From: an uncultured Gammaproteobacteria bacterium
GTDB taxonomy: Bacteria > Patescibacteriota > Microgenomatia > Levybacterales > UBA12049
Direction of reading: 5' to 3'
DNA length: 64,000 bases
NCBI GenBank assembly: GCA_964474445.1
Contig: CAYYSJ010000007.1
Span: 3,112-67,111 of the forward strand
The notes beneath the pieces were generated by a model. It was not told the DNA's origin. It searched no databases and saw nothing but the letters and a program-made list of their open reading frames with translations. The first letter of the stretch is position 1, and each line of letters starts with the position of its first letter. The position numbers and the translations under genes are program-made. Below are positions 12,444 through 53,718 of the stretch, in pieces.

Positions 12444-13013
12444 ATGAAAAAGTGGATTATTGTCGTAGTATTTTTCATCATTCTATTGATTAGTTCCATT
12501 TTTTATTATAAGTCACAAAAAACTACTTTCTCATTTAACTCACAATTTTCTCCTACACCCATAAAAGAAATCGTTGGCATTCCAATACTCCTCACCATTC
12601 CACGATTTCACATAAGCGTAAAAATAGAATCCGTGGGACTAGATAGTAAAAACAGAATGGATATACCAAAAGATTTTACCAATGTCGCCTGGTATAATTT
12701 GGGGTTTAAACCAGGGGAAAAAGGAAGTGCAGTTATTGATGGACATGTAGATACACCAACAGGAGCACCTGCTGTCTTTGCACAAATTTCTACTCTTCAA
12801 AAAGGTGACATTATTTCAATTCAAGACTCGTCTAGTAAAACACATTCCTTCACTGTAACAAATGTTATTACCTATCCTTATAACCAACTACCTCTTCAAA
12901 CTATTTTTAATAGTATAGATAAACCACGACTTAACTTGATAACATGTGCGGGAATCTGGGATAGCGTGAATAAAAACTATTCAGAAAGAACTGTTGTCTT
13001 TGCAGAAGAGTAA
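12444..13013 (+). CDS. Sortase family transpeptidase
   Basis: 189 aa. N-terminal membrane anchor, catalytic His in 'VIDGHVDT', Cys in 'LNLITCAG' (TLxTC motif), and C-terminal Arg in 'ERTVVFAEE'. Confidence 0.8.
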   Translation: MKKWIIVVVFFIILLISSIFYYKSQKTTFSFNSQFSPTPIKEIVGIPILLTIPRFHISVKIESVGLDSKNRMDIPKDFTNVAWYNLGFKPGEKGSAVIDGHVDTPTGAPAVFAQISTLQKGDIISIQDSSSKTHSFTVTNVITYPYNQLPLQTIFNSIDKPRLNLITCAGIWDSVNKNYSERTVVFAEE

Positions 13014-13020
13014 ACTTATT

Positions 13021-37542: not shown

Positions 37543-40500
37543 TTAGTTGCTGGATCCTTTAACAACAGTATAATTTATCACAGGAGCATCCACTGCAGTT
37601 CCTCCGGTTGTGAGAAAAGTAATCTGGAAACTTCCTGCTGCTATATTTGTTACAAATAGCTCATACAGATTAGTTCCTGAATTTTGATTCAAAAGGATCG
37701 TATCTGTTGCTGCAACTGTACTGTTTGTAACAGTAAATGAAGTTGCTGTAGCTGACCCTGCTGCTGAAAAGAGAGTTATTTGACCTGTTGTCTTATTAAG
37801 CGTAACGCCTGTTGATCTACTAGTAAGTTGTGTAACAGTACCTCCTGCTCCTGCTCCATAACCGATTCCAGTTGATCCAGTTGATTTAATAAATCCTGTT
37901 GCAGTCAATGGACCATTAACCGTTGCTCCTGCATTAGATGTTGAATTACCAATGGTAACAAGACCAGAAGTTGCGGAAATAGTATTAATACCTACTGTAC
38001 CTGTTCCTTTTCCATCTAAAGTAAGATTCGTATTGGCACCTGAATCAATTGCAGCAAGGGCTGTCGTGCCTCCTGTCGCGGCTCCTGTTACTGATAAACC
38101 AGTCGCAACAGAAGCTGTACTAGCATTAACTTGAAGTACAGGATTCAATGATCCACCCGCTCCAACTGTTAATGCATTCGCACTAGTTGATGTAACCGTA
38201 ATTGCACCTGATCCAATGGTTCCAGCGCCTGTTATATTACCCGCTGATGTAATTGTAATGTTTGGTGATGTGAGAAAGTTCGTATATCCAGTACCAAAGG
38301 TAAGTGCGTTAAAGTTATTATTTGCAACTGCACTTACATTGGCAAAATTAATACCAGTATTGGTATTGGTTCCACTTGATGGTGCAGTACCAACCATTGC
38401 CACAGAAAGTCCATTCACACTTGTTCCCGCTGCTGCGTTACTGTTTGTCACATTAAATGTTGTTGCTGTACCAGTGGTGTTTGAATAATTTTGAGTAACT
38501 GTTCCCGTTCCAGAAGCCAGTGTTAATGTCTTATTTGCTGATACTGTAGTATTTGCACCTAAGGTAATAGCATTTGCATTGGTAGTACCAATATTAACAC
38601 CCGCCGCTCCTCCGGTATCAAGCGTTACTGCATTTGCACCTGTTGATTGGAATGTAAATGCTCCCGCAACTGCTGGCTGTACAGCAGTCGAGGAGAGAGT
38701 CACGCCGTTATAACTTCCTGCGCCAGTAATAACACCACCTGAGGTAACATTAATGTTTGGTGATGTGACAAAGTTTGTATACCCAGTACCAAAGGTAAGC
38801 GCATTAAATGTATTATTTGCAACTGCACTTACATTGGCAAAATTAATACCAGTATTGGTATTGGTTCCACTTGATGGTGCAGTACCAACCATTGCAACAG
38901 AAAGCCCATTCACACTTGTTCCTGCTGCTGCATTACTGTTTGTCACATTAAATGTTGTTGCCGTACCTGTGGTGTTTGAATAATTTTGGGTAATTGTTCC
39001 CGTTCCAGAAGTAAGTGTTAATGTTCTATTTGCAGCAATTGTTGTATTCCCATTAAGATTGTTCGCTCCAGTTGATGTTGAGAAGGTACCTGTACCGTTA
39101 AAGGTATAATTTGGATTATTTGTACCATTACCGAAATTAAGAGCATTTGCATTGGTATTACCAACGTTGACAGCAGCTGCTCCTCCTGCATCTAATGTCA
39201 AAGCATTAGCACCATTTGATTGGACTGCAAGCACTCCAGCAGATGTTGGCTGAATAGTACTACCAACTGTAATGTTTGCACCAGTAACGGTTAATGTTCT
39301 GGATGTTGTACCTCCTGCAACGGTAAAACCATCTGCTGCAGAGGTTAAGGTTAACCCATTGACGGTACTGGATGTCGCAAGCGGACCACTCACGGTTGTT
39401 GTCACGCCTGATCGTCCGATTGTCACACCATTTGCATTTGTTGTCCCAATATTGATTCCTGCTGCTCCTCCTGCATCAAGGGTGAGGGCTGTTGCTCCTC
39501 CGGAAGTAACTGACAGTGCTCCAGATCCCGTAATATTCCCGCCAGCAGTAAAGGCAGGCAGGGTTAACCCAGTCGTTGTTACTGTTCCATTGATGGCTGG
39601 AGCTGTTAATGTCTTATTTGTTAATGTCTGGGTTGCTCCGATACCAACAACCGTATCGGTTGCCGTTGGGAATGTCATGGTTGTTCCATCGGTACCTGCT
39701 AAGGTTAAGGTATTGCTGACTGTTAATGTTTTAGCTGTTGTTCCACCAGCAATCCCAAACCCTGTTGCATTTGCCGTAAGGGTAAGACCATTAATTGCAC
39801 CGAAACTTGAAATGGTTGGAGAACCTGAACCAGTAATATTGCCACTGGCAGTAAAGGCAGGCAGTGTTAATCCTGTCGTTGCGACTGTTCCATTGATTGT
39901 TGGAGCTGTTAGTGTTTTGTTTGTTAATGTTTGTGTCGCCCCGGTACCAACAACGGTATCGTTCGCAGTTGGGAACGTCATGGTTGTACCATCAGTGCCT
40001 GAAAGGGTAAGTGAGTTATTTGCAGTTAATGTTTTTCCACTCGCTACAGTTAATCCGTTCACTGTTGTTGCATTAATTGTTCCAGAACCAGAAGTCGTAA
40101 GTGATGCCCCTGTTCCAACTATCATAGCTGCGCCTGTATTTGTACCCCCACTGAGTGTTGAGAAAGATGCGCCAGAGCCTGAACTTGCTGCAATGGTAAT
40201 ACCTCCTGCAGCATTTGTAATAGTTACTCCAGATCCAGCAGTAAGAGTTCCTAGACTGTATCCACTACCATTTCCAATTAATACCTGTCCATTTGTTGGT
40301 GTTGTCGTTACTCCGGTTCCACCATTACCAACAGGAAGCGTCCCTGTGACATCTGAAGAAGCAAGATTTGTTGCTGAGGAGGTAATACTACCAGAGCCAT
40401 TACTATGTAATATTCCCGATCCTAATGCACCAATTGTTAATCCACCTGAAAGATTGAGATTACCATTATTATCTATAGTAGCCTTTGTTAAGTTAAGGGC

Positions 40501-41487
40501 TGACCATCTATTACTTGATGTACCAAGTTGACCAACGCCTGATTGAGCAGGATACAAATCACCACCCGTAGAACCCAAAACTGCCCCATCTCCAAGTGCA
40601 CTTGAGTTTGTCCCAGCATTCGCTTGAGCAGAATTATACGTAGTTAACACACTACCTTCTGTTAACATAACATCATCAAGATATACAGCTCCACTTGTTA
40701 GTCCTTGAACCTGGAACATTGGATAATAATTTTTGCTATCAGTAATAAGTCCTCCCGTAGTCACTGTTGTTGAAATCCTATACCAATCTTTTGTTCCAGA
40801 TATTGTTATATTTTTAAATGAACCCTCTTTATTATTTTGTTCATCCCAAAACCCAATACGGAAGGTTGCATTAGAAGCATTGACATTTTTTACCCATGCA
40901 GAAAGTGTATATGTTCTCTGTGGAGTTGTTTTTGTGTTAGGTTGAGAAATACCAAAATTACCTGTTCCTCCACCAACAAACTTAAGTCCATAGCTTCCTG
41001 AATGAATTCCCTCTTGAGAAATAAAGGTATTCCCAGAATTTGAATCAAGCTGAGTATTCCATTGTGAGGGAATACTTCCAGTTCCGCCTGCCTCAAAAGA
41101 AGAATTTCGAAGAAGATTTACTCCGGCTGTATCTACAACTAAGGCATTTTGAGAAGGTGCTTGATTGAGGGAGCTTATTTGTAATGACAGATTCCCTACT
41201 TTTTGTTGAAGTGCTGCAAACGCGTCTGGATCAATACTTATTCCTTCTACCGCTCTTGTTTGAGGTTTTGACGCATTCACTACCAATGTATTTGTACTCT
41301 CATAAGGAGTCTTCCCTTGAAAGACAACGTTCATCACAGAACCCAAAAAATTTCGCATATCTTGTCCGCCAAAAGCTTGTGCACTTGGGACCTGAGAGAG
41401 GACAAGAATCACGATAAACGACGTTGCAATCAGAAACTTTCGTAAGGAAACCTTTGCTCTTTTTCTTTCTTTTTTGTTTTCTTTCAT
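37543..41487 (-). CDS. Giant secreted Thr/Gly/Asn/Ala-rich repeat protein with N-terminal CBM4/9-like carbohydrate-binding module and beta-helix-like repeats (surface adhesin/fibre candidate)
   Basis: 1314 aa. Signal peptide/anchor 'FLIATSFIVILVLSQVPSAQA'. CBM4_9-like block 'NLLRNSSFEAGGTGSIPSQW...GSYGLKF...YTLSAWVKN'. Then ~1000 aa of low-complexity T/G/N/A repeats with recurring 'TQTLTNKTLTAPxINGT' and 'TLTL(S/A)GTDGTTMTFPTA' units. Confidence 0.7.
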   Translation of the reverse strand: MKENKKERKRAKVSLRKFLIATSFIVILVLSQVPSAQAFGGQDMRNFLGSVMNVVFQGKTPYESTNTLVVNASKPQTRAVEGISIDPDAFAALQQKVGNLSLQISSLNQAPSQNALVVDTAGVNLLRNSSFEAGGTGSIPSQWNTQLDSNSGNTFISQEGIHSGSYGLKFVGGGTGNFGISQPNTKTTPQRTYTLSAWVKNVNASNATFRIGFWDEQNNKEGSFKNITISGTKDWYRISTTVTTGGLITDSKNYYPMFQVQGLTSGAVYLDDVMLTEGSVLTTYNSAQANAGTNSSALGDGAVLGSTGGDLYPAQSGVGQLGTSSNRWSALNLTKATIDNNGNLNLSGGLTIGALGSGILHSNGSGSITSSATNLASSDVTGTLPVGNGGTGVTTTPTNGQVLIGNGSGYSLGTLTAGSGVTITNAAGGITIAASSGSGASFSTLSGGTNTGAAMIVGTGASLTTSGSGTINATTVNGLTVASGKTLTANNSLTLSGTDGTTMTFPTANDTVVGTGATQTLTNKTLTAPTINGTVATTGLTLPAFTASGNITGSGSPTISSFGAINGLTLTANATGFGIAGGTTAKTLTVSNTLTLAGTDGTTMTFPTATDTVVGIGATQTLTNKTLTAPAINGTVTTTGLTLPAFTAGGNITGSGALSVTSGGATALTLDAGGAAGINIGTTNANGVTIGRSGVTTTVSGPLATSSTVNGLTLTSAADGFTVAGGTTSRTLTVTGANITVGSTIQPTSAGVLAVQSNGANALTLDAGGAAAVNVGNTNANALNFGNGTNNPNYTFNGTGTFSTSTGANNLNGNTTIAANRTLTLTSGTGTITQNYSNTTGTATTFNVTNSNAAAGTSVNGLSVAMVGTAPSSGTNTNTGINFANVSAVANNTFNALTFGTGYTNFVTSPNINVTSGGVITGAGSYNGVTLSSTAVQPAVAGAFTFQSTGANAVTLDTGGAAGVNIGTTNANAITLGANTTVSANKTLTLASGTGTVTQNYSNTTGTATTFNVTNSNAAAGTSVNGLSVAMVGTAPSSGTNTNTGINFANVSAVANNNFNALTFGTGYTNFLTSPNITITSAGNITGAGTIGSGAITVTSTSANALTVGAGGSLNPVLQVNASTASVATGLSVTGAATGGTTALAAIDSGANTNLTLDGKGTGTVGINTISATSGLVTIGNSTSNAGATVNGPLTATGFIKSTGSTGIGYGAGAGGTVTQLTSRSTGVTLNKTTGQITLFSAAGSATATSFTVTNSTVAATDTILLNQNSGTNLYELFVTNIAAGSFQITFLTTGGTAVDAPVINYTVVKGSSN
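38258..39030. repeat. Near-identical 495-bp (165-codon) tandem duplication inside the giant protein gene
   Basis: Antisense ORFs 38216..38488 and 38753..38983 translate to near-identical peptides, giving a period of exactly 495 bp. On the coding strand this duplicates 'TLTL(T/A)SGTGT(I/V)TQNYSNTTGTATTFNVTNSNAAAGTSVNGLSVAMVGTAPSSGTNTNTGINFANVSAVANN'. Confidence 0.7.
39540..40010. repeat. Diverged ~303-bp (101-codon) tandem repeat inside the giant protein gene
   Basis: Two ~85% identical nucleotide blocks starting near 39547 and 39850, coding 'TLTL(S/A)GTDGTTMTFPTA(N/T)DTVVG(T/I)GATQTLTNKTLTAP(T/A)INGTV..TGLTLPAFTA(S/G)GNITGSG'. Confidence 0.55.
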
Positions 41488-41546: not shown

Positions 41547-42620
41547 TTAATTTGAAGGTAAAGCTTGTGCAGATGTATGAAGAGGTAGTTTTATAGTTAC
41601 CGTTGTTCCTTTCCCGAGCTCACTTGCTATGTGAATGTTTCCATTATGTTTTTCTAAAATCATTTTTGTTATGGTAAGCCCTAACCCTATACCTTCCGTC
41701 TGCTTACCTTTATTATTTCCACGAAAGAATCTTTGATACAGATAGGGGAGATCTTCTTTTGAAATTCCTACACCTGTATCCGAAATTACAATGCTTACAT
41801 TATTTTTTTCTCTTCTACTACTGACTATTATTTTCCCCCCCTTATTTGTGTATTTAATTGCGTTTTTTAATATATTAACTATAGCCTGTTCCATACGTAT
41901 CGAATCTCCTAATAAAGAGACTTTTGGCAACTTTTTAACAATAAGTTCTATTTCCTTTCTATCTGCTATATAACGCATCCGTATAATTGCCTGATCTATG
42001 ACACTATCCAGAAGGAAAGGAATAGTAATAAATGTTTCTTGGTATGTATCGTTACGAGATAAAAAGAGTAAATTGTCTAAAATAAGCTGAATTCTCTCGA
42101 TTTCATTACGATTAGCTCTTCCAGCAGCTTGTCTTTGCAGTAAAAGATCTTTTTGACTCTTAAAATCTTTGATATTTTGTTGTAAAAATATTTCTAAATC
42201 TGCTTTGATGATAGAAAGAGGAGTACGAAGCTCATGAGAAGCTTCTGCTAAAAAATTTTTTTGATTCTCAACAATTTTTTTGAGAGGCCTGATTCCAAAA
42301 CCAGCAAGGACATAACTAATACCAATTACTACAAAAAACATGAATACATCTTCAGGCTGGATACTATATAATGTTAATGTTGCTAATCTTGTTGCTCTGT
42401 TTATAAACCTTTGCCTTCGAGAATCAGTAGGATTGGATATTTCATTTGAAATTATCACTGCTTCCTCTGTAAACTCTCTGTGAAGAAGGGTGAGATAGAA
42501 TAAGATCCCACTTACAATAACGAGCGTATAAATAATTGTTAGTTGTAATTGCGTCGATGTGAAAGGATTATTTTTTAAGTTGATAACCCACACCACGAAT
42601 CGTTTCCAAAATGTTTTCAT
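41547..42620 (-). CDS. Sensor histidine kinase
   Basis: 357 aa. Two N-terminal TM helices, HisKA H-box 'EASHELRTPLSII', HATPase_c G-boxes 'DTGVGI' and 'GIGLGLTI'. Confidence 0.85.
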   Translation of the reverse strand: MKTFWKRFVVWVINLKNNPFTSTQLQLTIIYTLVIVSGILFYLTLLHREFTEEAVIISNEISNPTDSRRQRFINRATRLATLTLYSIQPEDVFMFFVVIGISYVLAGFGIRPLKKIVENQKNFLAEASHELRTPLSIIKADLEIFLQQNIKDFKSQKDLLLQRQAAGRANRNEIERIQLILDNLLFLSRNDTYQETFITIPFLLDSVIDQAIIRMRYIADRKEIELIVKKLPKVSLLGDSIRMEQAIVNILKNAIKYTNKGGKIIVSSRREKNNVSIVISDTGVGISKEDLPYLYQRFFRGNNKGKQTEGIGLGLTITKMILEKHNGNIHIASELGKGTTVTIKLPLHTSAQALPSN

Positions 42621-43254
42621 ATCCTACCTCCTTTAACTTCTTTCTAATATTTTTAACATGTACATCTACCACATTAGAAAATGAGTCAAAATTAATGTCC
42701 CAAATTTTTTCTAATATCTGTTCTCTTTCTAAAACAGTATTTGGATGTTCCATAAGGTATTGAAGAAGATTAAATTCTTTAAGCGTTAATATAAGTTCTT
42801 TTTCTTGATAGAGAACTTTTCTCATTGCTGTATTAAGGATAAGGTCACCAATACGCAATTCTGAAGTAATATTTTGTGCTTTATGAGATCTACGCACCAA
42901 TGCACGTATACGAGCAAAAAGAATATCAAATGAAAAGGGCTTTGTGAGGTAATCATCAACACCAGCATCAAGACTTGTAATGATATCTTCAGGTGTATCT
43001 TTTGCGGTGAGCATAAGAACAGGTATCGTTAATCCTTGCCTCCGTAACATTTTGCATAGTTCTACTCCGCTCTTACCTGGAAGCATAAAATCAAGCAAAA
43101 GCATATCGATACTATCCTGATTTCGAGAGATAAAAAGCTCTGCATCCTCGGCAGAAGAAAAACTGTACGCTGTATAGCCTTGTTGTTTGAATCCTTTTTT
43201 AAGATTTTTTGCCAGTCTTTCTTCGTCCTCAATAATCAAAATTTTCATATTCAT
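42568..43254 (-). CDS. OmpR-family response regulator
   Basis: Receiver domain ('KILIIEDEE', 'LLLDFMLPGKSG', 'LTAKD') plus C-terminal winged-helix trans_reg_C. I prefer the start at 'MNMKILIIED' over the track start 43284. Overlaps the kinase gene. Confidence 0.85.
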   Translation of the reverse strand: MNMKILIIEDEERLAKNLKKGFKQQGYTAYSFSSAEDAELFISRNQDSIDMLLLDFMLPGKSGVELCKMLRRQGLTIPVLMLTAKDTPEDIITSLDAGVDDYLTKPFSFDILFARIRALVRRSHKAQNITSELRIGDLILNTAMRKVLYQEKELILTLKEFNLLQYLMEHPNTVLEREQILEKIWDINFDSFSNVVDVHVKNIRKKLKEVGYENILETIRGVGYQLKK

Positions 43255-43427
43255 AGTATGCACCGTCCATAATGAAGATTTCATGAAGAGTTAATGCTTT
43301 TGCTTACTATAACATAACTTTAGTTTTTTTAGTAGGGAAATGATCATGTAAGATATACAATTCAACGGTTCTTATCACAAGCAAAGAGGGTGTACTGAAT
43401 GAATGTGGATCTTAATCTAAAGTAATA

Positions 43428-44423
43428 TTATTCTTTTTTAAGAATTGCATACGATGAGTTACCAAGCAATATATTACCTGAGACTACTGTTTGTATATTG
43501 CTGAGTTTATTGTTTTGTATTGTTGCATTCATTAAGTTATATCCACTATTTCCTTGTGCTTGCAAATAATAAATGACGTTTTTCGTGTTAGAAAATGCTG
43601 GATACGCAAGATCGCCTGATAGTAATGTACGGATATTTGAAAGCCCACTTGTACTATCAAAATCAGCAATATATAGTGTCACGCTAGTTGATCCATCATT
43701 CCTTCCTAAAAACAGAAGCTGCTTCCCATCAGGTGAGAATGCTGCTTGATATGCATTTTGATTTTCAAAGGTTAAGGTTGTTATCAGTCCCGTTGTATTA
43801 TCAAACTGTTCGATCGTTGAATATGGCATTAATGTTTGAGGATCATATTGATAATAATCATAAAGGATAATATTGCTATTAACTGGATTAAACAAAGGAT
43901 GAGCAAGTCCTCCCGAGTACGGACTGGGTTTTGCGACATTGGTTGATTTTCCAGTTGCTAGGTTTAATACATACAACGCATTGTCTGGCACATTGGTTTG
44001 TGCTTTATCTTTATCAGATACGTAGGCAATTCTGTTTTGAGCAGGACTCGCAGCAGGATCTGTGATCCAACTCATCGTATCGATAGTATCGTTATTTCCG
44101 CTAAAAAGTGTTTTTATGATATTCCCTTGTTGATCAAACATCAGTAAAGAAGCATAGTTTGTTGTTTTTTCAATGGCTGCAAAGGTATTTCCAATTTTTA
44201 CGGGCTCGATGAGATGTTGCCCATGGGTAATTTGTGCACTACCTTGATGTGATACTTGATAGATATCTCCTTGGTTACTAAGAACAATGACATCTGTTGG
44301 AGGAATATTTTTTGTGCTAAAAGTAGCCATTGTTTGGCCTCCTTGGTGCGTTTGGAAAAACGCAACAAGAAAACCAAGAACACATGACACAATACTTAAG
44401 AAGAGTAATCTTCGTTTTCTCAT
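43428..44423 (-). CDS. Secreted beta-propeller protein (TolB-like repeats)
   Basis: 331 aa. N-terminal signal anchor. Repeated 'SPDGKQLLF..DGSTS.LYI'-type blades typical of TolB/WD40-like beta-propellers. Confidence 0.5.
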   Translation of the reverse strand: MRKRRLLFLSIVSCVLGFLVAFFQTHQGGQTMATFSTKNIPPTDVIVLSNQGDIYQVSHQGSAQITHGQHLIEPVKIGNTFAAIEKTTNYASLLMFDQQGNIIKTLFSGNNDTIDTMSWITDPAASPAQNRIAYVSDKDKAQTNVPDNALYVLNLATGKSTNVAKPSPYSGGLAHPLFNPVNSNIILYDYYQYDPQTLMPYSTIEQFDNTTGLITTLTFENQNAYQAAFSPDGKQLLFLGRNDGSTSVTLYIADFDSTSGLSNIRTLLSGDLAYPAFSNTKNVIYYLQAQGNSGYNLMNATIQNNKLSNIQTVVSGNILLGNSSYAILKKE

Positions 44424-45454
44424 TGCGCTATTCCCTCCTCATTCGATAGACTCTTCAGGGTTACTTCTCCAGCATTTTCCCCAAAAATTTGTGTCACTAA
44501 TGTTGCTGATTGAGAAGCGTCTGCAATAACAATGCTTTGTCCATCAGTAGAATTCCCTACTGTCGAATAGGTTGGAGGAGAAAGCGTCAGTTGTTTTACT
44601 GTTACATTCTTATTGGTCAAAAAGAACAAACCAAGTTGTGCCCCATAAGCTGGAGAAATATCAGTTTTCATCTGTCCATTCAGACTTTGTAAAATGCTTG
44701 GCAGTTTCGCAAAGGATGATTTTGAGTGAAGGAGTGTATCTTTCAACGTTAAGAGCAACTGTCTTTGTCGTTGTGTGCGTCCAAAATCCCCAATAAGATC
44801 TTCATGCCGAGAACGCACGTACTGAAGCGCTTGTTCCCCTGTCATATGTTGCATGCCAGCTTGGATATCAAGGCGTTGATATCCGTACGGATTTGAGCTA
44901 TTGATATCTGTTGGATAGGAGTTATCCAAAACCGGATGAACTACCTGCAAATTTATTCCTCCAATCATATCAATACTTTGAATGAAACCATAGAGGCCTA
45001 CCCAACCATAATGATCAATAGGGACGCCAAAGGTTTGCTCAACCACTTTAATTGCACTTGGAATCCCATCATACTCAGCAGCTTGGTCTATCTTACCATA
45101 CGTTTGCCTATCAGGCATTTTCACCCAAAGATCTCGTGGGATAGAGAACATATCTACTTCTTTTTTAGCGTAATCGATATGGACTACCATCATGGTTTGC
45201 GTTAAGGGATTACCCGTAAATTTCTGATCGTTATCGCTTCCCAGCAAAAGGATATTCGTCTGGTTAGGCAACGATGTGACATTGGCTACATTTTTCACCG
45301 AAACACGTTGGTTCATTGCTGCTGTAATAAATTGCTGGAGTGAATTCAAATAATAGACTCCATATCCCAAGAAAAAACAAACAATGATAACAAGAGCAGC
45401 AAAAATCAAACGGACAATGAATGGCTTTTGTTTCTTTTCGGGAACATCATGCAT
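44420..45454 (-). CDS. LytR-CpsA-Psr (LCP) family cell-envelope polymer transferase
   Basis: 344 aa. N-terminal TM anchor, LCP core 'NILLLGSDND...TQTMMVVHID...MFSIPRDLWV' plus downstream conserved Arg residues. Confidence 0.8.
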   Translation of the reverse strand: MHDVPEKKQKPFIVRLIFAALVIIVCFFLGYGVYYLNSLQQFITAAMNQRVSVKNVANVTSLPNQTNILLLGSDNDQKFTGNPLTQTMMVVHIDYAKKEVDMFSIPRDLWVKMPDRQTYGKIDQAAEYDGIPSAIKVVEQTFGVPIDHYGWVGLYGFIQSIDMIGGINLQVVHPVLDNSYPTDINSSNPYGYQRLDIQAGMQHMTGEQALQYVRSRHEDLIGDFGRTQRQRQLLLTLKDTLLHSKSSFAKLPSILQSLNGQMKTDISPAYGAQLGLFFLTNKNVTVKQLTLSPPTYSTVGNSTDGQSIVIADASQSATLVTQIFGENAGEVTLKSLSNEEGIAQ

Positions 45455-45466: not shown

Positions 45467-46762
45467 TTATACAAGGGAAATCAGCTTCTTTGAGCGATGA
45501 TTATAGGAGAAAAGTTGGGTATAGGAACCGATATCGATTGCTGCTCTAAACTGAAGCATTGCATCTTCTGTAGGGAAATATTGCTCTAAGTGTTCTATAA
45601 CCTCTCTTTCCTCCATAGTATGATGTGGGCTTTCTTGTAAACGTTTTATAATATATTGGATAAGGACGATATTTCCTTCTGCTTGTGTACGAAGAATTTC
45701 TCTTGCTTTCTCTTGCAACGCATTAGCAAATGCAAGACCAACTTCTGTTAAAAGTATTTTATTTCCCTCAATGCCACCAAAGCCTAGAATATCAATAAGG
45801 CTGGTTAAATGAAGCATTTCTGCAACTGAAACAGTGTTTTGAACCGAATGGAGATCTACTTTACCACCAAACGCAGCAATACCCTTTAAGAATCCTTTCA
45901 TTGTATGAATGCTTACCAGCGGTAATACTTGATACGCAGATTTTTCTTCTGCAACCGAAAGTTCTTGCACTCCATGAATAAGCTTTGCAGGACTGACATG
46001 TGGATTTGTCATGATTTGATAAATACTATCAACAAGCTGTAACCTCTCTGGAGTTTTCGTTTTTCGTTTTTCAACTGATAAGCCTGGTACTTCCACCCGA
46101 AACCTTCCCGGATTTGCTGAAAGAACAAACATTCGATCAGCCATACTAACTGCCTCATCAATATTGTGTGTTACCATCACAATTGTTTTGGTTGGAATCT
46201 TTTTCTCAAGCCATAAAGAAAGCAACTCATGGCGTAAATTTTCTGCGGTTAAGACATCAAGAGCAGAAAAAGGCTCATCCATGAATAGTATCTCAGGCTG
46301 AACAACAAGTGCTCGCGCAAAGCCAACTCGCTGTTTCATACCCCCTGAAATCTCTTTTGGAAATGCTTCCTCAAATCCTTTCAAGCCAATAATCTCAATA
46401 ACTTCTTTTATTCTTTTTTCTTTTTCGTCTTTTGAAATATTTTTTGCAATAAGACCAAGAGAAACATTTTCGCGAACAGTAAGCCACGGATAAAGCGCAA
46501 AGTTTTGAAAAACAATTGCAGCATAGTGGTTCGGTCCAGCAAGAGACTTTCCATTCACCATAACATGTCCTGTAGAAGGAGGAATAAGACCGGCAAGGAT
46601 GCGAAGAAATGTTGACTTTCCGCAACCTGATGGACCTAAGAGTGCAACAAATTCACCTTCATGAACAGAAAGGTTTAGATTATCAAGTACTACTTTTTTT
46701 GTTTTTCCATCTCCATACCATTTATGGATATGCTTTGCTTGTAATAAACTGTTTGACTCCAT
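45467..46762 (-). CDS. ABC transporter ATP-binding protein (NitT/TauT-type) with ~200-aa C-terminal extension
   Basis: Walker A 'LGPSGCGKSTFL', signature 'ISGGMKQRVGFARAL', Walker B 'ILFMDEPFSALD', H-loop 'VMVTHNIDEA'. I prefer the start at 'MESNSLLQAKHIHKWYG'. The C-terminal half has no recognised motif. Confidence 0.8.
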   Translation of the reverse strand: MESNSLLQAKHIHKWYGDGKTKKVVLDNLNLSVHEGEFVALLGPSGCGKSTFLRILAGLIPPSTGHVMVNGKSLAGPNHYAAIVFQNFALYPWLTVRENVSLGLIAKNISKDEKEKRIKEVIEIIGLKGFEEAFPKEISGGMKQRVGFARALVVQPEILFMDEPFSALDVLTAENLRHELLSLWLEKKIPTKTIVMVTHNIDEAVSMADRMFVLSANPGRFRVEVPGLSVEKRKTKTPERLQLVDSIYQIMTNPHVSPAKLIHGVQELSVAEEKSAYQVLPLVSIHTMKGFLKGIAAFGGKVDLHSVQNTVSVAEMLHLTSLIDILGFGGIEGNKILLTEVGLAFANALQEKAREILRTQAEGNIVLIQYIIKRLQESPHHTMEEREVIEHLEQYFPTEDAMLQFRAAIDIGSYTQLFSYNHRSKKLISLV

Positions 46763-46769
46763 ATATAGA

Positions 46770-48524
46770 TTATTCAAAATGATACTTGCTTTCCGCAAGA
46801 CGGTAAATTCTCTGCCAGAAAAAACGATTAATGGTAAAAACAAGAATAGCCATGGTTATGGTACTAATAAGTAGTAGATGAAAATTATTCGTATTTGCAG
46901 CTTCAGCAATAGTCGCTCCAAGCCCTACTGTTTGATGTACTTTCCCTGCAAAAGTGACATACTCAGAGACAATACTTGCATTCCACGCTCCACCTGTTGC
47001 AGTAATCATTCCGGTAACAAGATAAGGGAAAATAGAAGGGAGAATTAAGTATCGCCATCTGTTCCATCCTCTAATTTGATAGATTGTCGTTGCTTCCCGA
47101 AGGTCATTAGGAATTGCCATTGCCCCTGCAATCACATTAAATAGTACATACCACTGCGTTCCCAGAAGCATTAAGACGACAGCAGCAATATTTAATCCAC
47201 TTGGAAGAAACAAAAGAAGCAAGAGTAATGCAGGGAAAAGTGCTGTTGCAGGAACTGAGGCTGTCATTTGGATAATTGGCTGCACCCTTTTTGCCCATTT
47301 TGGATTCAGGCCAACCGTAACTCCAACAGGAACAGTCCAGAGGAGAGATATCAGGAGAGCTGACATAGTCCGAAGGAGAGTCACCACAGCTCCTGTTCCA
47401 ATCATTTTCCATTCAAGTGAGCTAATTTGTTTGACAATACCCAATGTCACAATAACCCCTATAACAAATAACACGACACATACGAATAGCAAGAATGCAG
47501 TGGCAATAGATTTTGTTGGAACCGTTTGTTTCCTTATATGCATTGGTTCTACCAATTCCTGTTTGTTGTCTCCACTACTAAACACCAAATCGATAAGTGT
47601 CACAAGAGGTATAAAAAGTACCTTTTCCAAAAAAGTCAAAATCCGTGATTGCAGAAGAAGTGATAAAAACCACGAATGAGGCTTTTCATCGGACTCATTT
47701 TGTTCTAATTTGAATCGATCTCCCCACGCAACAAGTGGACGCCACAGGAGCTGATCCAGAAGCACAATAACACAGATAAGAGTCCCGAGTCCCAACAGCA
47801 ACGCAATGATATTCCCTTGATTTGCAGCAGCTTGTAGATATGATCCAATGCCGGGGAGTTGGAAACTTTTCGTCCCTAAGGTAAATTGTTCTGATGCCAT
47901 CAGAAAAAACCACCCTCCTGCCCAACTCATCATTGAATTCCAAATAATAGAAATTGTTCCTGAAGGAATTTCTAAACGAGTAAATCGTTGCCAAAAGTTT
48001 AAATGGTTTATGAAAGCTACTTCTTTTAACTCCTCTGGAATAGTAAGAAGCGTTTGATAAAAGCCAAACGTAATATTCCACGCTTGGGAAGTAAAGATAA
48101 GAATAACTGCTGCAAGTTCCAAACCAAGGTTCGTGTGAGGAAATAATGCAACCAACCCAAGAACAACTCCTGGCATAAACGAAAGGATCGGAATACTTTG
48201 CAACACATCAAGTATTGGAATCATGATTCCTTCTGTTCTTCGACTCATGACTGCAATACGAGCATAGAGAAAACTAAAAAGAAGAGCTATCACATAGGCA
48301 ATTGCCATTCTTCCTGTTGAGAGCACTGCATAATATGGGAGTTTTGTTGGTGAAAGATCAATACTAAAGTTTTGGTTAACAGGAGCATGCCATTGTACTG
48401 AAAGTATGATAATAAAATAGAGAAGGGAGAAAAGAACTCCGAACACCAATAGATCTGAAACAAAAGAATGTTTCTTCGGAAGGATTATATTATGAAATCC
48501 TTGTCTAGTATATGTGTGTGCCAT
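46770..48524 (-). CDS. ABC transporter permease with duplicated transmembrane domain
   Basis: 584 aa with two consecutive BPD-type permease units (~12 TM); NitT/TauT-like. Immediately upstream of its ATPase. Confidence 0.7.
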   Translation of the reverse strand: MAHTYTRQGFHNIILPKKHSFVSDLLVFGVLFSLLYFIIILSVQWHAPVNQNFSIDLSPTKLPYYAVLSTGRMAIAYVIALLFSFLYARIAVMSRRTEGIMIPILDVLQSIPILSFMPGVVLGLVALFPHTNLGLELAAVILIFTSQAWNITFGFYQTLLTIPEELKEVAFINHLNFWQRFTRLEIPSGTISIIWNSMMSWAGGWFFLMASEQFTLGTKSFQLPGIGSYLQAAANQGNIIALLLGLGTLICVIVLLDQLLWRPLVAWGDRFKLEQNESDEKPHSWFLSLLLQSRILTFLEKVLFIPLVTLIDLVFSSGDNKQELVEPMHIRKQTVPTKSIATAFLLFVCVVLFVIGVIVTLGIVKQISSLEWKMIGTGAVVTLLRTMSALLISLLWTVPVGVTVGLNPKWAKRVQPIIQMTASVPATALFPALLLLLLFLPSGLNIAAVVLMLLGTQWYVLFNVIAGAMAIPNDLREATTIYQIRGWNRWRYLILPSIFPYLVTGMITATGGAWNASIVSEYVTFAGKVHQTVGLGATIAEAANTNNFHLLLISTITMAILVFTINRFFWQRIYRLAESKYHFE

Positions 48525-48590
48525 ATGTGTATATTACCGTCTTCTGCCTTTCAACAGACGGGTAGTCTCTTGTCTAGTAGGCATCTCCTT

Positions 48591-49892
48591 TTAGTGTCCT
48601 AACGTGAAAATCATCGCAACTGCCGCAGCACCCATTGAAATAAAGGTTATCCAAACTACTACTTGGGAAAGCCATCCACTAGCATACTCTCCCATAATTT
48701 TTTTATTTGCTGCTATTTTTGCAATAAGGAAAATTAGCGGTACCGCAACAACCCCATTAATCACTGCCGTTACAACAAGCGCTTTAATTGGATCAAGACC
48801 AATAAAGTTAATCATTAAGCCAATGAGTGTAGCAATAGTGATAACGCCATAAAATCCATGTGCACGTTTGAGCTTTAAATTGAGTCCTTCCTTCCAGCTA
48901 AATGCTTCAGAGAATGCATACGAAGCAGAGCATGATAAGACAGGAATAGCAAGAAGTCCTAATCCGATAATGCCAATAGAGAAAATGAGTTTTGCAAGAT
49001 ATCCAGAGTTAGGAAAGGTATGTACCAATGGTTCTAATGCTTTTGCTGCATCTGCCGAGGTTGCAATATTTGTAACTCCATGGGAATTCAGTACTGTTGC
49101 AGTGACGACAATAATACACCAGGTGACAGCCTCTGAAGCAAACATACCAAACGCATTATCAATACGCATGTTTTTCACTATTCTCCATACATTTTTTGGT
49201 TCTCCATCTGCATTCAGTTCATGATGTGCTTTCTCTTCTTCAACTTCTTGGTTCGCTTCCCAGAAAAATAAGTAAGGAGAAATTGTTGTCCCAAGAACAC
49301 CTGTGATAATAAAAAGAAATGCAAAGCTAAATTCAAAGTGAGGAAGAATCGTTGCTTTTACAATAGTCTGAAATGGAAGATGAATAATAAGAAGAGTTAA
49401 TGGGTATGCAAGAAGAGCTATGGCTAACCATTTGAGGATACGAGAATAAACATAATAGTTAGTAAATATTTCAAGGGTAAGAATAAAGGCCGTAAAAAAG
49501 AGTGTCCAGATCACAAAATGAAATGGAAGAATTAAATTTGCAGCAGCAGCTAATGCCCCAATGTCTGCTCCAATGTTGATTGTGTTTGCAATTAAAACAA
49601 GAACGACGACACCATATAGTACCTTTTTACTATAGTTGTCTCGTACTACAGCAGCAATCCCTTTTCCTGTGACAATACCTATTCTTGCACAAGCTTCTTG
49701 AACTGCAATCATTAAAGGAAGCATCGCAATTGCTGTCCATAGTTGTCCATATCCAAATTGAGCACCTGTTTGAGAATACGTTGCAATACCAGATGGATCA
49801 TCATCTGCCGCTCCAGTAACTAATCCTGGCCCTAATACGCGAAAAAATTTGCGAGAATTCTTCTTTGTGTTATGCAGTAGTTCTTTTATCAT
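48591..49892 (-). CDS. Nramp-family transporter, NRMT-like paralog 2
   Basis: 433 aa. TM1 'GPGLVTGAADDDPSGIATYSQTGAQFGYGQLW' has DDDPSG in place of DPGN. TM6 'GTTISPY' replaces 'GAxxMPH'. Confidence 0.75.
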   Translation of the reverse strand: MIKELLHNTKKNSRKFFRVLGPGLVTGAADDDPSGIATYSQTGAQFGYGQLWTAIAMLPLMIAVQEACARIGIVTGKGIAAVVRDNYSKKVLYGVVVLVLIANTINIGADIGALAAAANLILPFHFVIWTLFFTAFILTLEIFTNYYVYSRILKWLAIALLAYPLTLLIIHLPFQTIVKATILPHFEFSFAFLFIITGVLGTTISPYLFFWEANQEVEEEKAHHELNADGEPKNVWRIVKNMRIDNAFGMFASEAVTWCIIVVTATVLNSHGVTNIATSADAAKALEPLVHTFPNSGYLAKLIFSIGIIGLGLLAIPVLSCSASYAFSEAFSWKEGLNLKLKRAHGFYGVITIATLIGLMINFIGLDPIKALVVTAVINGVVAVPLIFLIAKIAANKKIMGEYASGWLSQVVVWITFISMGAAAVAMIFTLGH

Positions 49893-49976
49893 GCCTTATT
49901 TATCTTCCTTATCTATTTTGCTCCTATTTTTTCATATATTGCAATAGCTAAGAGGATTTATATGTTGAAGTGATGT

Positions 49977-50201
49977 TTATTCGTTATCTCCCATACTTTT
50001 TTGTAATTCTTGGTGTGCTTTTTCTGTTAGTTCCATTGCTTGTTTACCTAATTCATAAGCTTTTTGTGTATGTTCTACCTCTTTTTCTTTATTTCCTAAC
50101 GCTCTATGAATTGCAGCTCGCTGATGATGTTCTTCCACTTTTTCGTGAAGCGTTGCAGCATCTAAATGAAGTGATAATGTATCGTCCATAAAATACTTCA
50201 T
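49977..50201 (-). CDS. Small His/Glu-rich helical protein, hypothetical
   Basis: 74 aa, hydrophilic, His-rich ('HLDAATLHEKVEEHHQRAAIHRALGNKEKEVEH'). Codirectional between the two Nramp-like genes. I prefer it to the antisense ORF 49970..50191. Confidence 0.3.
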   Translation of the reverse strand: MKYFMDDTLSLHLDAATLHEKVEEHHQRAAIHRALGNKEKEVEHTQKAYELGKQAMELTEKAHQELQKSMGDNE

Positions 50202-50247
50202 GCGACTTCTCTTTTTTATTCAAAAAACACAATAAGAGATTCCTAAC

Positions 50248-51930
50248 TTAATGTCCCGTTGCAAGTTGTACAACTTTGATAATCATTAGTAATGCAGCAA
50301 CAACTAAGTATCCTCGAAGCGTATACATACCGATTTTTCTTGTTAATGACCATTCAGGTTTTGGTAATGTCTCTAATGGTTGCATTCTCCAATTCATTTT
50401 TTCCTCAAGAGACATCAATTCTTTTTTCTCTGTCTTTTTCTTACTAAATAGATAGAATCCTCCTGTTATCAGAAGCCCGGCAATAAGAGCACTTCCGGTC
50501 CAAACAGTTACTTGAGTTCCATCAAGATTTGGGAAAAGCGTTGTCGCAGCAAGAATAAAGGAGAGCATAACTAACACTCCAATAATGATACCTGCAATTG
50601 CATTAAGCCATTTTGTATTTACCCAAGGGCCAAGCACATGTTTATCGTTGCACAAAAGGACAAGAAATACAGTGGCCGATGGAAGAAGAATGCCAGCTAA
50701 AGCTTGTACAGCAAGGTTAATAAGCCCAAGAGGAGCATGAGGAATAAGCACTATTGCTGCTGCAAGAACAACAAGGACTGAATAAGAAATGTAGAAGAAT
50801 TTTGCATCTTTAAATGATCTATGGAGTGAATGATGCATTCGAAATACATCTCCAAATGCATATGAAGTTGAAAGGGTAACTGCAGCAGCACCAATCACTG
50901 CAGCATCTATAAGAATTATTGCCCCCATAGCTCCTGCTTGATGTCCAAATGTTGTAGCAAGACCACTAATGACTCCTGTCATATCTGAAAACTGTCCTGT
51001 AAGTTTTGTTCCTGCAAATGCAAAAGCAGTTACGATGATCATGGCAGCAGCACCAAATTCGGTAACAAATGATCCAAAAATGGTATCCATTACTTCATAT
51101 TTAAGCCAGCGAGGAGTAATTCTCTTGTCAATAACGTTTGACTGTTGGAAAAACAATTGCCATGGAGCAACAGTAGTCCCAACAATACTCACAATAAGAA
51201 GGAGTACGGTGGAGTTAAGTCCTCCTGCTATTCCAGGAATAAACGTATCATGGAGAACTGGCATCCAGTGAGGGTGAACCATGAGAGCTAATGGATAAAC
51301 CAGAAATGAGAAGACAATAAAGCCGTACATAAATTGCTCCCAACGTTTGAAGCTTCCAGTAAGTGCAGTTGCAATAAGGATTGTGGCAAATAAGGGAACA
51401 GACAGGTATGGAGGAATTCCAAAGTAAAGTGCACCTTGAGAAATACCAATAAATTCAGTGACAATAGTAAGAAAGTTTAAAATAAATAAATCCCCTGCTG
51501 AGAAAAATCCCCAGAATTTTCCAAACCGTTCAATAATCATGCGAGCATGTCCGACACCTGTCACAGCACCAAGACGAGCAACCATTTCTTGATTCACAAT
51601 AAGAACAGGTATAAGAAGGAAGAGCGTCCACATAAGAGAAGTGCCGTAATTTTGTCCTGCTTGCATGTATGTAGCAACTCCTCCCGCATCGTTATCACCA
51701 ACCATAACAATGAGCCCTGGACCCATGATCACTAAAAACGCAAGAAGTTTTTTTAATAGTCCTTTATGCTGATATGGATGTTCATCTTTTCGGATAGTAC
51801 CCCATGCGCCATAGATATCACCCAAGTGGGCTGGATCTAACACAGCACTCCCCGCATGAGAGTCAACCTCATGTGGATGAGGTAAATATTTATAATAAAC
51901 GTTTTTGAAAAATTCTTTCATCACAAACAC
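50248..51930 (-). CDS. Nramp-family transporter, NRMT-like paralog 3 (extended C-terminus)
   Basis: 560 aa. TM1 'MGPGLIVMVGDNDAGGVATYMQAGQNYGTSLMW'. TM6 'GTTVAPW'. Extra C-terminal TM helices and a ~60-aa tail. Confidence 0.75.
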   Translation of the reverse strand: MFVMKEFFKNVYYKYLPHPHEVDSHAGSAVLDPAHLGDIYGAWGTIRKDEHPYQHKGLLKKLLAFLVIMGPGLIVMVGDNDAGGVATYMQAGQNYGTSLMWTLFLLIPVLIVNQEMVARLGAVTGVGHARMIIERFGKFWGFFSAGDLFILNFLTIVTEFIGISQGALYFGIPPYLSVPLFATILIATALTGSFKRWEQFMYGFIVFSFLVYPLALMVHPHWMPVLHDTFIPGIAGGLNSTVLLLIVSIVGTTVAPWQLFFQQSNVIDKRITPRWLKYEVMDTIFGSFVTEFGAAAMIIVTAFAFAGTKLTGQFSDMTGVISGLATTFGHQAGAMGAIILIDAAVIGAAAVTLSTSYAFGDVFRMHHSLHRSFKDAKFFYISYSVLVVLAAAIVLIPHAPLGLINLAVQALAGILLPSATVFLVLLCNDKHVLGPWVNTKWLNAIAGIIIGVLVMLSFILAATTLFPNLDGTQVTVWTGSALIAGLLITGGFYLFSKKKTEKKELMSLEEKMNWRMQPLETLPKPEWSLTRKIGMYTLRGYLVVAALLMIIKVVQLATGH

Positions 51931-52094
51931 CTCCTATGTAAAAGGTAATATTGGAAAGTTCGCCTGAAAGAAGAGGATTATCTAAGAGGAACCATACAAA
52001 AATAATCTACAATCTCTTATAAACTCTTTTTGTTTAGCGACGTCTTAACACCTCTTCTCGTTGAGCTTCGACTATTGCTGAAAGACGTATGCGT

Positions 52095-52268
52095 ACTACT
52101 CTATTCGTTCTAACCTAATCTAAATCAATGAAATTAAGCTATTGCAAGCTACTTTGGATTAATCCTTACTCCGGAAAAATCTGTCCTGACCTTGACCGTC
52201 TCTCGACGTGGGGGGTCAGCAGCTTGTATTCTTTCAGCAGTCTCACCTAACGAGGTGCAACTAACTAT
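52095..52268 (-). ncRNA. Candidate M-box (ykoK) Mg2+-sensing riboswitch in the leader of the Nramp-like operon
   Basis: Minus-strand leader reads ...CGTTAGGTGAGACTGCTGAAAGAATACAAGCTGCTGACCCCCCACGTCGAGAGACGGTCAAGGTCAGGACAG... This aligns with the Bacillus mgtE M-box core 'CGUUAGGUGAGGCUCCUGUAUGGAGAUACGCUGCUGCCCAAAAAUGUCCAAAGACG' as I recall it, with conserved GUUAGGUGAG, GCUGCUG.CCC, AGACG and CAGGACA boxes. About 330 nt of leader lie upstream of the Nramp ATG. Confidence 0.55.
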
Positions 52269-52276
52269 CTGTGGAA

Positions 52277-52306
52277 ATTATAAAACTTTAAATTTTAGTT
52301 TGTCAA
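52277..52306 (-). promoter_or_regulatory. Strong sigma70-type promoter driving the M-box/Nramp-like operon
   Basis: Minus-strand TTGACA (plus-strand 52301-52306), 18-nt spacer, TATAAT (plus-strand 52277-52282); perfect consensus hexamers. Confidence 0.5.
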
Positions 52307-52366
52307 CCCCTCAAAAAGTATTTACTATTTTTCCAATATTGACAATCTAAACTACATAAGTATAGA

Positions 52367-52780
52367 ATGTCAATATCTGAGCAACTGCTCATATATACAT
52401 ATATCACAATGGATCCAATTAACAAAGAACATATCCATAAAGGAGAAAAAGCAATACCACCAAAACCTCTTCTTGAGGTAGTAGTACAAGTATTTGAAGC
52501 ACTTGGTGATGAAACTCGAGCAAAGATTCTTTACGCAGTGAGGAAACAAGAAATGTCAGTTCGAGATTTAGCAATCATTATCGATATTTCTGAATCTGCA
52601 ATTTCCCACCAATTAAAATATTTAAAAACAAGACATTTAGTAAAATCACGAAGAGATGGAAATGTCATCTACTACAAAGTAAGTTTTAGACATTTATCAG
52701 CACTCCTTAAAGAAGCAGAGTATTATGCGGATCACCTGAAAAGTAAATTACCTGACCACCCCTATAGAGAAGATGAATAA
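52367..52780 (+). CDS. ArsR/SmtB-family metalloregulatory transcriptional repressor
   Basis: 137 aa. 'ALGDETRAKILYAV..EMSVRDLAIIIDISESAISHQLKYLKTRHLVKSRRDGNVIYY' winged-HTH of ArsR type. The start may be the internal 'MDPINK'. Confidence 0.75.
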   Translation: MSISEQLLIYTYITMDPINKEHIHKGEKAIPPKPLLEVVVQVFEALGDETRAKILYAVRKQEMSVRDLAIIIDISESAISHQLKYLKTRHLVKSRRDGNVIYYKVSFRHLSALLKEAEYYADHLKSKLPDHPYREDE

Positions 52781-52782
52781 CT

Positions 52783-53718
52783 ATGCATAAACAGCTGCCA
52801 CACAACCATATGAAAGGCCACTCTGAGGAACACACTCATGGAACGATTGATCCGTCAATCACAACAAGTGACAAAGGATTATGGGCACTGAAATGGTCTA
52901 TGGTAGGCTTTATTATTACCTCTGGTATTCAATTTCTTATTGTTTTATTCTCAGGGAGTGTTGCATTGCTCACTGATGCAATTCATAATTTTGGTGATGC
53001 TGGAACAGCTATTCCTTTATGGTTTGCATTCCAAGTATCCAAGCGTAAACCAAATCAGAAATTTGCCTATGGATTAGGACGAGCAGAAGACTTGGCAGGA
53101 CTTTTTATCCTCGTTGTTATTTTATTCACAACAATTATTGCAGGATATCAAGCAACATACCGGCTTATCCATCCCCAACATTTACAAAACTTGTGGATTG
53201 TATTATTCGCTGCTCTTATTGGTTTTGTTGGAAATGAGACTATTGGACTCCTTCGTATTAAGGTAGGTAAAGAAATCCATAGTGCAGCCTTGGTTGCCGA
53301 TGGACAACATGCTCGTATTGATGGACTGGCAAGCCTTTCAGTTATTATTGGTGTTATCGGCGCTTGGCTGGGATATACAATTGTTGACCCACTCGTTGGT
53401 ATCGGTATTATCCTCATTGTATTACATACCCTTTGGGAAGCTGGAAAAGAAATACTTGTGAGACTCCTGGATGGTGTTGATGAAGAAGTGATTCATCAAA
53501 TACAACATACAGCAGACCATATAGATGGAGTCGGAAAATTTACTGACATAAGAGCAAGGTGGAGTGGCCACTTTTTGTTTGTTGAATTGACAATTTTAGT
53601 ACAACATAACCTGACTGTTGAAAAGGGACACACAATTGCAAGCAATGTTAGACACGAACTTCTTCATCATATGCCTCACATTGCAGACGTTACTGTTCAT
53701 GTAGAGCCCGTGAAATAG
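52783..53718 (+). CDS. Cation diffusion facilitator (CDF) family divalent-metal efflux transporter (CzcD/ZitB-like)
   Basis: 311 aa. His-rich N-terminus 'HNHMKGHSEEHTHG'. TM2 'LLTDAIHNFGDAGTAI' and TM5 'HARIDGLASLSVIIG' metal-site motifs. C-terminal cytoplasmic domain. Confidence 0.85.
   Translation: MHKQLPHNHMKGHSEEHTHGTIDPSITTSDKGLWALKWSMVGFIITSGIQFLIVLFSGSVALLTDAIHNFGDAGTAIPLWFAFQVSKRKPNQKFAYGLGRAEDLAGLFILVVILFTTIIAGYQATYRLIHPQHLQNLWIVLFAALIGFVGNETIGLLRIKVGKEIHSAALVADGQHARIDGLASLSVIIGVIGAWLGYTIVDPLVGIGIILIVLHTLWEAGKEILVRLLDGVDEEVIHQIQHTADHIDGVGKFTDIRARWSGHFLFVELTILVQHNLTVEKGHTIASNVRHELLHHMPHIADVTVHVEPVK

Follow-up and report, generated by a model that had tools for sequence, protein, structure and literature searches.

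This study concerns the 5' leader and the genes of a putative Mg2+-uptake operon, situated on the minus strand of a 64,000 nucleotide (nt) stretch of contig CAYYSJ010000007.1 (positions 3,112 to 67,111, GenBank assembly GCA_964474445.1; the whole stretch is referred to as the window), where an M-box riboswitch precedes two genes of the Nramp family, from now on referred to as gene A and gene B. The M-box of Bacillus subtilis ykoK/mgtE, the type member of the Rfam family RF00380, uses a classical intrinsic terminator. In an Infernal search for M-boxes upstream of genes other than those of Mg2+ transporters, Shin et al. (2014, PMC4072509) found them at Nramp-related genes, for which Mg2+-responsive regulation and Mg2+ transport were shown and the class was named NrmT. 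The riboswitch of Ca_c0685 couples expression to intracellular Mg2+, both tested M-box-linked Nramp-related genes transport Mg2+, and the riboswitch was proposed as a marker of Mg2+ specificity; in general it marks a subset of the NrmT genes, beside which a neighbour gene resembling the MgtE N-domain is common, though not universal (PMC4072509). The Nramp-related Mg2+ transporters (NRMT) have been defined by DxxG on alpha-1 and TxxA/T on alpha-6, replacing DPGN and AxxM (PMC8806188). Thr224 and Gln379 are important to transport by EleNRMT of Eggerthella lenta (PDB 7QIA; Ramanadane et al. 2022, PMC8806188), which has lost the two proton-pathway histidines on alpha-6b; mutation of the Thr abolished transport of Mg2+ but not of Mn2+, which the protein carries as well. 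For the M-box of Mycobacterium tuberculosis a translational platform together with Rho-dependent termination has been described (PMC12810186).

The locus in the window resembles the nrmT M-boxes of Clostridium acetobutylicum (Ca_c0685 and Ca_c3329, PMC4072509) in that the aptamer lies in the leader of an Nramp-related gene that is not MntH, in that the transporter branches apart from the Mn2+/Fe2+ Nramps, and in its proposed logic, Mg2+ repressing a Mg2+ importer. It differs in having no companion like the MgtE N-domain but a small His-rich helical protein following the transporter, in the long form of the first gene (~550 amino acids (aa), two extra C-terminal helices), in the addition of a 25% identical paralog and an ATP-binding cassette (ABC) transporter, in lacking a canonical terminator, and in its host, a low-GC uncultured bacterium that is neither a Clostridium nor a Deltaproteobacterium. 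With B. subtilis ykoK/mgtE it shares the aptamer family, matched over its full length, and the position between a σA-type promoter and the gene of a Mg2+ importer; here, however, the predicted alternative pairing closes a long hairpin holding the ribosome-binding site and the start codon. As in the M. tuberculosis Mbox there is no classical terminator and control is proposed at translation initiation, but that element (PMC12810186) controls a small upstream open reading frame (ORF), while in the window the hairpin covers the start of the transporter gene itself and no such ORF was seen. The pairing of an M-box with an Nramp gene was described already in 2014, and the earlier note on this DNA, which took such a pairing to imply Mg2+ importers, reproduces the result of Shin et al.

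Promoter and M-box aptamer

A σ70-type promoter, TTGACA and TATAAT separated by 18 nt, was identified at 52306..52277 (minus strand, as are all features of the leader and the operon), matching the hexamers in 12 of 12 positions, as the earlier note had read it. This exact sequence occurs once in the 64 kb window, while shuffling of the window gave 0.04 expected occurrences on average and at least one in 4 of 100 shuffles. The predicted transcript start lies at ~52270 and the aptamer begins ~9 nt further downstream.

The aptamer (52261..52045) is a complete M-box of the ykoK type. When aligned to the covariance model RF00380, whose score had been named beforehand as the test of the M-box claim, it reached 117.3 bits compared with a gathering score of 44 (E 1.5e-25) and covered model positions 1–169 of 169. 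The helices P1–P6 are able to form, as the RF00380 alignment flags no more than two pairs as non-canonical, the minimum-free-energy fold of the leader recovers the M-box helices, and among eleven NRMT-linked M-boxes compensatory changes were found in 22 of the 44 consensus pairs. While the identification stood, the length of about 170 nt proposed for the element did not; the aptamer is 217 nt long, the excess being a 48-nt insertion (~52140..52093) which the RF00380 alignment places in the loop of the last aptamer hairpin, which forms a hairpin of its own in the fold and which varies from 0 to 48 nt among relatives. The M-box is the sole Rfam family detected in the window, and no second riboswitch was found before gene B when the window and two of the related loci (L081 and L083; comparison loci are given by L numbers) were scanned with Rfam.

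Promoter (52306..52277), aptamer (52261..52045) and start of gene A (51921) follow each other on the same strand, placing the M-box in the 5' leader, and the observation of aptamer and promoter is real and far beyond chance. Taken together with the properties of gene A described below, the leader probably holds an M-box-class off switch responding to Mg2+ and serving an operon for Mg2+ uptake.

Gene A, a long-form transporter of the NRMT type

Both ORFs that the earlier note had described as Nramp paralogs match the Pfam family Nramp, the first (50248..51930, gene A) with an E-value of 1.7e-71 and the second (48591..49892, gene B) with 7e-71. An ATG had been placed at 51930, but the codon at this position is GTG and lies within the Shine-Dalgarno sequence AGGAGGTG. 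Translation likely begins at the ATG at 51921, located 8 nt past GGAGG, which agrees with the N-termini of the homologues and with the database copy of the protein of 557 aa, and gene A is accordingly given as 51921..50248.

The best match of both proteins in sequence and in fold is EleNRMT. For gene A the sequence comparison with solved structures gave 7qia with an E-value of 1.3e-55, compared with 9e-12 for the best MntH chains, and the AlphaFold model (predicted template modelling score, pTM, 0.75) has 7qia as top Foldseek match with a TM-score of 0.86 (normalised to the target). The NCBIfam model of MntH scored 103 bits against a cut-off of 430, and other NCBIfam MntH/Nramp models remained at 47 bits against 272 and 38 against 50. 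Gene B behaves in a similar way, with 7qia as best solved match (E 1.9e-45, best MntH chains ~4e-14) and as top Foldseek match of its AlphaFold model (pTM 0.75; TM-scores 0.80 for the query and 0.86 for the target), and with 98 bits against 430 for MntH and 51 against 272 and 37 against 50 for the other models. The proposal of the earlier note that the genes are NRMT-like and not MntH-like is therefore supported independently of the riboswitch, by sequence, fold, cut-offs and the signature of gene A.

This signature consists of DAGG (D78–G81), TTVAPW with T249-T-V-A252, and a Gln on alpha-10 (Q406), and DAGG, GTTVAPWQ and Q406 are invariant across 16 members of the family. The Asn, Met and His of the canonical Nramp motifs DPGN and MPH are missing at the corresponding positions. 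APWQLFFQ of gene A aligns to APWMMFFN of EleNRMT, a Gln replaces the second alpha-6b histidine and Q406 corresponds to Gln379. Asp55/Gly58, Thr224/Ala227, the Trp in place of the first alpha-6b His, Glu133 and Gln379 of EleNRMT are common to both proteins. The putative site of gene A matches the published NRMT signature DxxG/TxxA, including the Gln of alpha-10, and judged from its sequence gene A is an SLC11 transporter of the NRMT type with a Mg2+-type binding site. It differs from EleNRMT in being only ~31% identical over the aligned fold, in an N-terminal extension of ~55 aa and in two additional helices. These are features of the A-type subfamily (~550 aa), in which the extension (residues 1–55, with the motif SAVLD.AH.GDI.GA.GTIR) is conserved, and the two extra C-terminal helices are in gene A predicted at residues 468–492 and 526–554, joined by the conserved motif W-R-M-P-P-L..L-P-K-P. 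Members of the subfamily are numerous in Chloroflexota, Actinomycetota, Dormibacterota, Alicyclobacillus and uncultured bacteria of low GC content.

Expression platform

The 3' strand of P1, ACGAGAAGAGGUG (52061..52049), as defined by the P1 pairing in the RF00380 alignment, includes the proposed switch strand GAGAAGAGG (52059..52051). Between P1 and the partner of this strand lies an A/U-rich spacer hairpin (52048..51982) that is predicted in every state; it is present in the window, L081, L083 (where the shape is kept and the sequence changed) and L002 and absent in L086 and L167. Folding of the leaders then points to a segment, CCUCUUCUUUCA (51976..51965), which can pair in two ways, via CCUCUUCU (51976..51969) with the P1 3' strand or via UUCUUUCA (51972..51965) with the first codons. 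When the P1 3' strand is free, GAGAAGAGG is predicted to pair with CCUCUUCUU (51976..51968), which removes the base of the start-codon hairpin. When P1 is closed, UUCUUUCA is predicted to pair with UGAAAGAA (51920..51913), which comprises the final two bases of the start codon plus codons two and three, and a long hairpin (51972..51913) is formed that encloses AGGAGG (51935..51930) and the ATG (51921..51919) and is followed by UUUUU (51912..51908).

The long hairpin has a stability of -17.2 kcal/mol (z -2.48), equalled by 4 of 200 shuffles, and a start-enclosing hairpin is also predicted in L081, L083 and L002, there with a tract of five to six U. The duplex with the P1 3' strand has -13.3 kcal/mol and is matched by 3% of the shuffles in the window, 2% in L002 and 2.6% in L083. 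The switch helix is predicted in all six distinct leaders, and L086 and L167 carry one compensatory change in it, from A:U to G:C. Its topology is that of Alicyclobacillus L067, in which a clear terminator/antiterminator was found, the GGGGG of the P1 3' strand facing the CCCCC of a GC-rich hairpin followed by UUUU.

As the sequence shows, the consensus promoter gives a transcript starting with the complete M-box aptamer. In the proposed model the aptamer would at high cytoplasmic Mg2+, from established M-box behaviour, compact and close P1, making its 3' strand unavailable, and the segment CCUCUUCUUUCA would as predicted by folding pair with the first codons. The long hairpin would then cover the Shine-Dalgarno sequence and the start codon and end in five U, thereby preventing initiation, halting transcription or both. 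When Mg2+ is low, the freed strand GAGAAGAGG would capture CCUCUUCU, the base of the hairpin would open and gene A would be expressed. Going by gene order, the transcript would extend over the genes of the small His-rich protein, of the B-type paralog and probably of the ABC transporter, and these downstream genes would come under the same regulation if it is exerted at transcription or by way of polarity.

Several results weigh against this model. In a consensus scan no canonical intrinsic terminator was found between the aptamer and the start codon. The computed accessibility of the ribosome-binding site is nearly the same with P1 forced and with P1 freed (partition function), and a local pairing of the anti-Shine-Dalgarno stays in both states. 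In L086 and L167 the segment freed on closure of P1 has no evident partner at the start region and the platform model therefore does not generalise. The statistics of the switch helix are modest, 2–3% of the shuffles in three leaders and 10–21% in the others, and when metagenomes were scanned for further close leaders nothing above 65% identity appeared, so that the evidence from covariation in the platform stays thin. Inspection of the region between aptamer and start codon, which the earlier note had suggested, thus gave no canonical terminator/antiterminator, and what folding predicts is a helix swap coupled to P1. It is only moderately likely that through this swap the translation start becomes enclosed in a hairpin, which may also serve as a weak terminator, and the leader is put forward as a candidate for a non-classical M-box expression platform.

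A rather unlikely explanation, though the likeliest of the rivals considered, is that the switch works purely by premature termination at the five U after the long hairpin, as in classical M-boxes, with the sequestration of the ribosome-binding site being incidental. The hairpin 51972..51913 is directly followed by the U tract, as are its counterparts in L081, L083 and L002, the topology equals that of the L067 terminator/antiterminator, and a coordinated control of the whole operon would be explained. However, the stem beside the U tract is A/U-rich (2 of 8 pairs are G-C), the apical loop has 18 nt, the consensus scan did not report the hairpin as a terminator and L167 lacks the U tract (GAAUUUAUC), while a translational M-box platform with Rho-dependent termination has been described for M. 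tuberculosis (PMC12810186). The terminator scan also missed the GC-rich terminator of L067, which has a tail of four U only; in the leaders of L168 and L169 it gave no canonical terminators.

Two other devices were considered beside the P1-coupled helix swap and rejected. A mechanism consisting solely in sequestration of the Shine-Dalgarno sequence was discarded, as the accessibilities with P1 forced and freed differ too little, and the A/U-rich hairpin (52048..51982) was discarded as a terminator, having almost no G-C pairs, a U run inside the stem and no U tract in L083.

Conservation of the M-box and of the gene module

Every close relative recovered (L081/82, L083-85, L086 and L167, 81–84% protein identity) has an M-box ahead of its A-type gene. 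Upstream of A-type genes it was by Rfam also found in L002, L003, L067 (Alicyclobacillus ferrooxydans), L091, L168 and L169, and the arrangement was further seen in L006, L011, L039 and L048. A second covariance model was built from the eleven NRMT-linked aptamers. Applied to 79 more distant A-type loci, it revealed an M-box upstream of the gene in 7; it gave none among ~70 short relatives at ~40% identity and none at five loci with a B-type gene only, so that the riboswitch is a feature of only part of the A family.

In three actinobacterial loci the strand opposite to that of the A-type gene carries an M-box 2–4 kb further downstream (L072, 9666–9836; L060, 9547–9717; L054, 7991–8161, minus), where it presumably controls a different, convergent gene.

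The window, L081/82 and L083-85 share a module consisting of gene A, the small His-rich ORF and a B-type gene. Of this module at least A and the small His-rich ORF are present in L002, and only A in the close relatives L086 and L167. The module of L081 (A, small ORFs, B-type) runs into mgtA (11774–14305), which scored 940 bits with TIGR01524 against a cut-off of 611, and this lends support to a link of the entire unit with Mg2+.

Gene B, the small ORF and the extent of the operon

Directly after gene A follows a small His/Glu-rich ORF, which the earlier note had given as 49977..50201; it exists and is conserved in relatives, being kept directly after gene A in L081/82, L083-85 and L002. The start is probably the second ATG at 50189, as in the homologues, which gives a predicted helical protein of 70 aa (50189..49977) with conservation and no curated family. 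Only a weak, sub-threshold match to TPR_12 was found in Pfam, and no MgtE N-domain was found by Pfam in any protein from 45467 to 53718. A word-indexed search revealed 4 relatives and an exhaustive profile search 322, the latter a mixture of TPR proteins and unannotated small His-rich proteins belonging to no Pfam family.

Gene B (49892..48591) encodes a second Nramp-related transporter of 433 aa, in a subfamily distinct from that of gene A. As in gene A, the Asn, Met and His of the canonical DPGN and MPH motifs are missing. The corresponding site reads DDDPSG / TTISPY, with a Glu at the position of the second histidine and Ala376 aligned to Gln379, so that gene B differs from EleNRMT in Ser for Ala227, Tyr for Trp229, Glu for Asn234 and Ala for Gln379. 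Among 29 homologues of gene B the Ser of T-T-I-S is found in at least 90% and Ala376 is invariant, and the remaining residues of this site likewise vary little or not at all. Gene B is on these grounds a predicted NRMT-like relative outside the published signature. The B subfamily (~430 aa) is 69–77% identical across phyla (Pedobacter, Mucilaginibacter, Saccharimonadales), and A and B, being 25% identical, are placed by these comparisons in two different large subfamilies and are not recent duplicates.

In Saccharimonadales of the candidate phyla radiation (L171-L173, 7001–8302) the B-type gene is the only Nramp-like gene seen on the contigs and adjoins prfB and ftsEX, with no riboswitch. In L170 (8308–10839) a B-type gene 86% identical to that of the window stands beside a convergent P-type ATPase of 843 aa, with no M-box; this ATPase has the same Pfam domains as MgtA of L081 and is 47% identical to it, the TIGR01524 score having been obtained for MgtA of L081 only.

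Possible distal members of the operon encode an ABC transporter (48524..45467) of the NitT/TauT-like type, identified by its Pfam and NCBIfam domains and consisting of a fused double permease (48524..46770) and an ATPase with a C-terminal AAA_assoc_C domain (46843..45467), with no binding-protein gene near 45467..48524. An orthologous ABC pair (permease 64–65% and ATPase 51.5% identical) is located downstream of an M-box and an A-type gene in L169 (9480–13053), an unrelated genome of high GC. In L083 and L085 a shorter permease and an ATPase follow the module.

The intergenic gaps are 46 nt (A to small ORF), 84 nt (small ORF to B) and 66 nt (B to permease), and in none of the three were terminator-like sites, promoter-like sites or unusually stable structures found. 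The simplest reading would be co-transcription of A, the small ORF, B and the ABC genes, and gene B would then be under M-box control, a regulation deduced only from gene order and the lack of a detectable terminator or promoter.

Three observations speak against the reading as an M-box-controlled operon for Mg2+ uptake. The site of gene B departs from the published NRMT signature, with TxxS and no alpha-10 Gln; the B family lacks the Gln essential in EleNRMT and elsewhere occurs without any M-box; and the M-box is found at a minority of the distant A-type loci, as given above. It could be that the riboswitch controls gene A only, the small ORF, B and the ABC genes being expressed independently of Mg2+ and B carrying another cation. 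With this agree, apart from the site of gene B, the B-type genes standing alone without an M-box in L170-L174, Saccharimonadales included, and the close relatives L086 and L167 having A alone, and a platform acting on translation of A alone would leave the downstream genes free. The gaps are short, however, no promoter-like site precedes the small ORF or B, no terminator-like site or stable structure follows A, and A, the small ORF and B have been kept together in three lineages, in L081 into mgtA, which makes control of A alone unlikely.

Quite improbable is finally that the transporters import mainly Mn2+ or another transition metal as part of a transition-metal homeostasis island, with the M-box as a general divalent-cation input, an explanation favoured by an ArsR-type metalloregulator and a cation diffusion facilitator (CDF) exporter diverging from beside the promoter and also flanking A-type genes elsewhere, by the Mn2+ transport of EleNRMT (PMC8806188), by an NrmT-like protein of Acidobacterium capsulatum that behaved as a Mn2+ transporter (PMC4072509) and by most A-type loci lacking an M-box, but opposed by the Ca_c0685 riboswitch, which reads intracellular Mg2+, and the Mg2+ transport of both tested M-box-linked genes (PMC4072509), by the Mg2+-type site of gene A with the Thr needed in EleNRMT for Mg2+ and not for Mn2+ (PMC8806188), and by mgtA being part of the L081 module.

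Implications for Mg2+ homeostasis

An off switch responding to Mg2+ in front of an NRMT gene does not overturn the current understanding, and the finding is correct but largely ordinary. As a clean, high-scoring example it extends the link between M-box and NRMT to the long-form NRMT subfamily, which is almost everywhere annotated as Mn2+/Fe2+ transporters and for which the riboswitch and the site residues allow a better annotation. Less ordinary are the recurrence of gene A, the small His-rich ORF and gene B as a module in close relatives and that of the ABC pair in L169, making the B-type paralog, the small His-rich protein and the ABC system candidate new players in Mg2+ homeostasis.

A tentative and still doubtful proposal would assign three uncharacterised components to a response to Mg2+ limitation: the B-type subfamily, the small His-rich protein and the ABC system, which lacks a binding protein. 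If this is true, the B-type subfamily, ~70% conserved across phyla, could be a distinct class of cation, possibly Mg2+, transporters, and the small His-rich protein, a putative helical hairpin, could be an accessory or regulatory subunit like the MgtE-N fragment beside clostridial NrmT. The ABC system with its fused permease and AAA_assoc_C domain, which recurs after an M-box and NRMT gene in the high-GC genome, would then join the response to Mg2+ starvation.

Neighbouring genes

Divergent from the M-box promoter, on the plus strand, are the genes of the ArsR/SmtB-type regulator (52367..52780) and of the CDF exporter (52783..53718). An inverted repeat with arms of 18 nt (52336–52353 / 52359–52376) overlaps the promoter-like sequence of these two genes, TTGACA-18-TAGAAT (52339..52368), and looks like the operator of the ArsR-type repressor. 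ArsR and/or CDF genes flank A-type NRMT genes in L081/82, L002, L083/84, L087, L090 and L003 as well.

Further along the window an ORF of 1314 aa (37543–41487, minus strand) gave no Pfam match at an E-value of 0.001 or better. Upstream of it are located a two-component system (41547..43284), a gene for a beta-propeller-like protein (43428..44423) and one for a LytR-CpsA-Psr protein (44420..45454).

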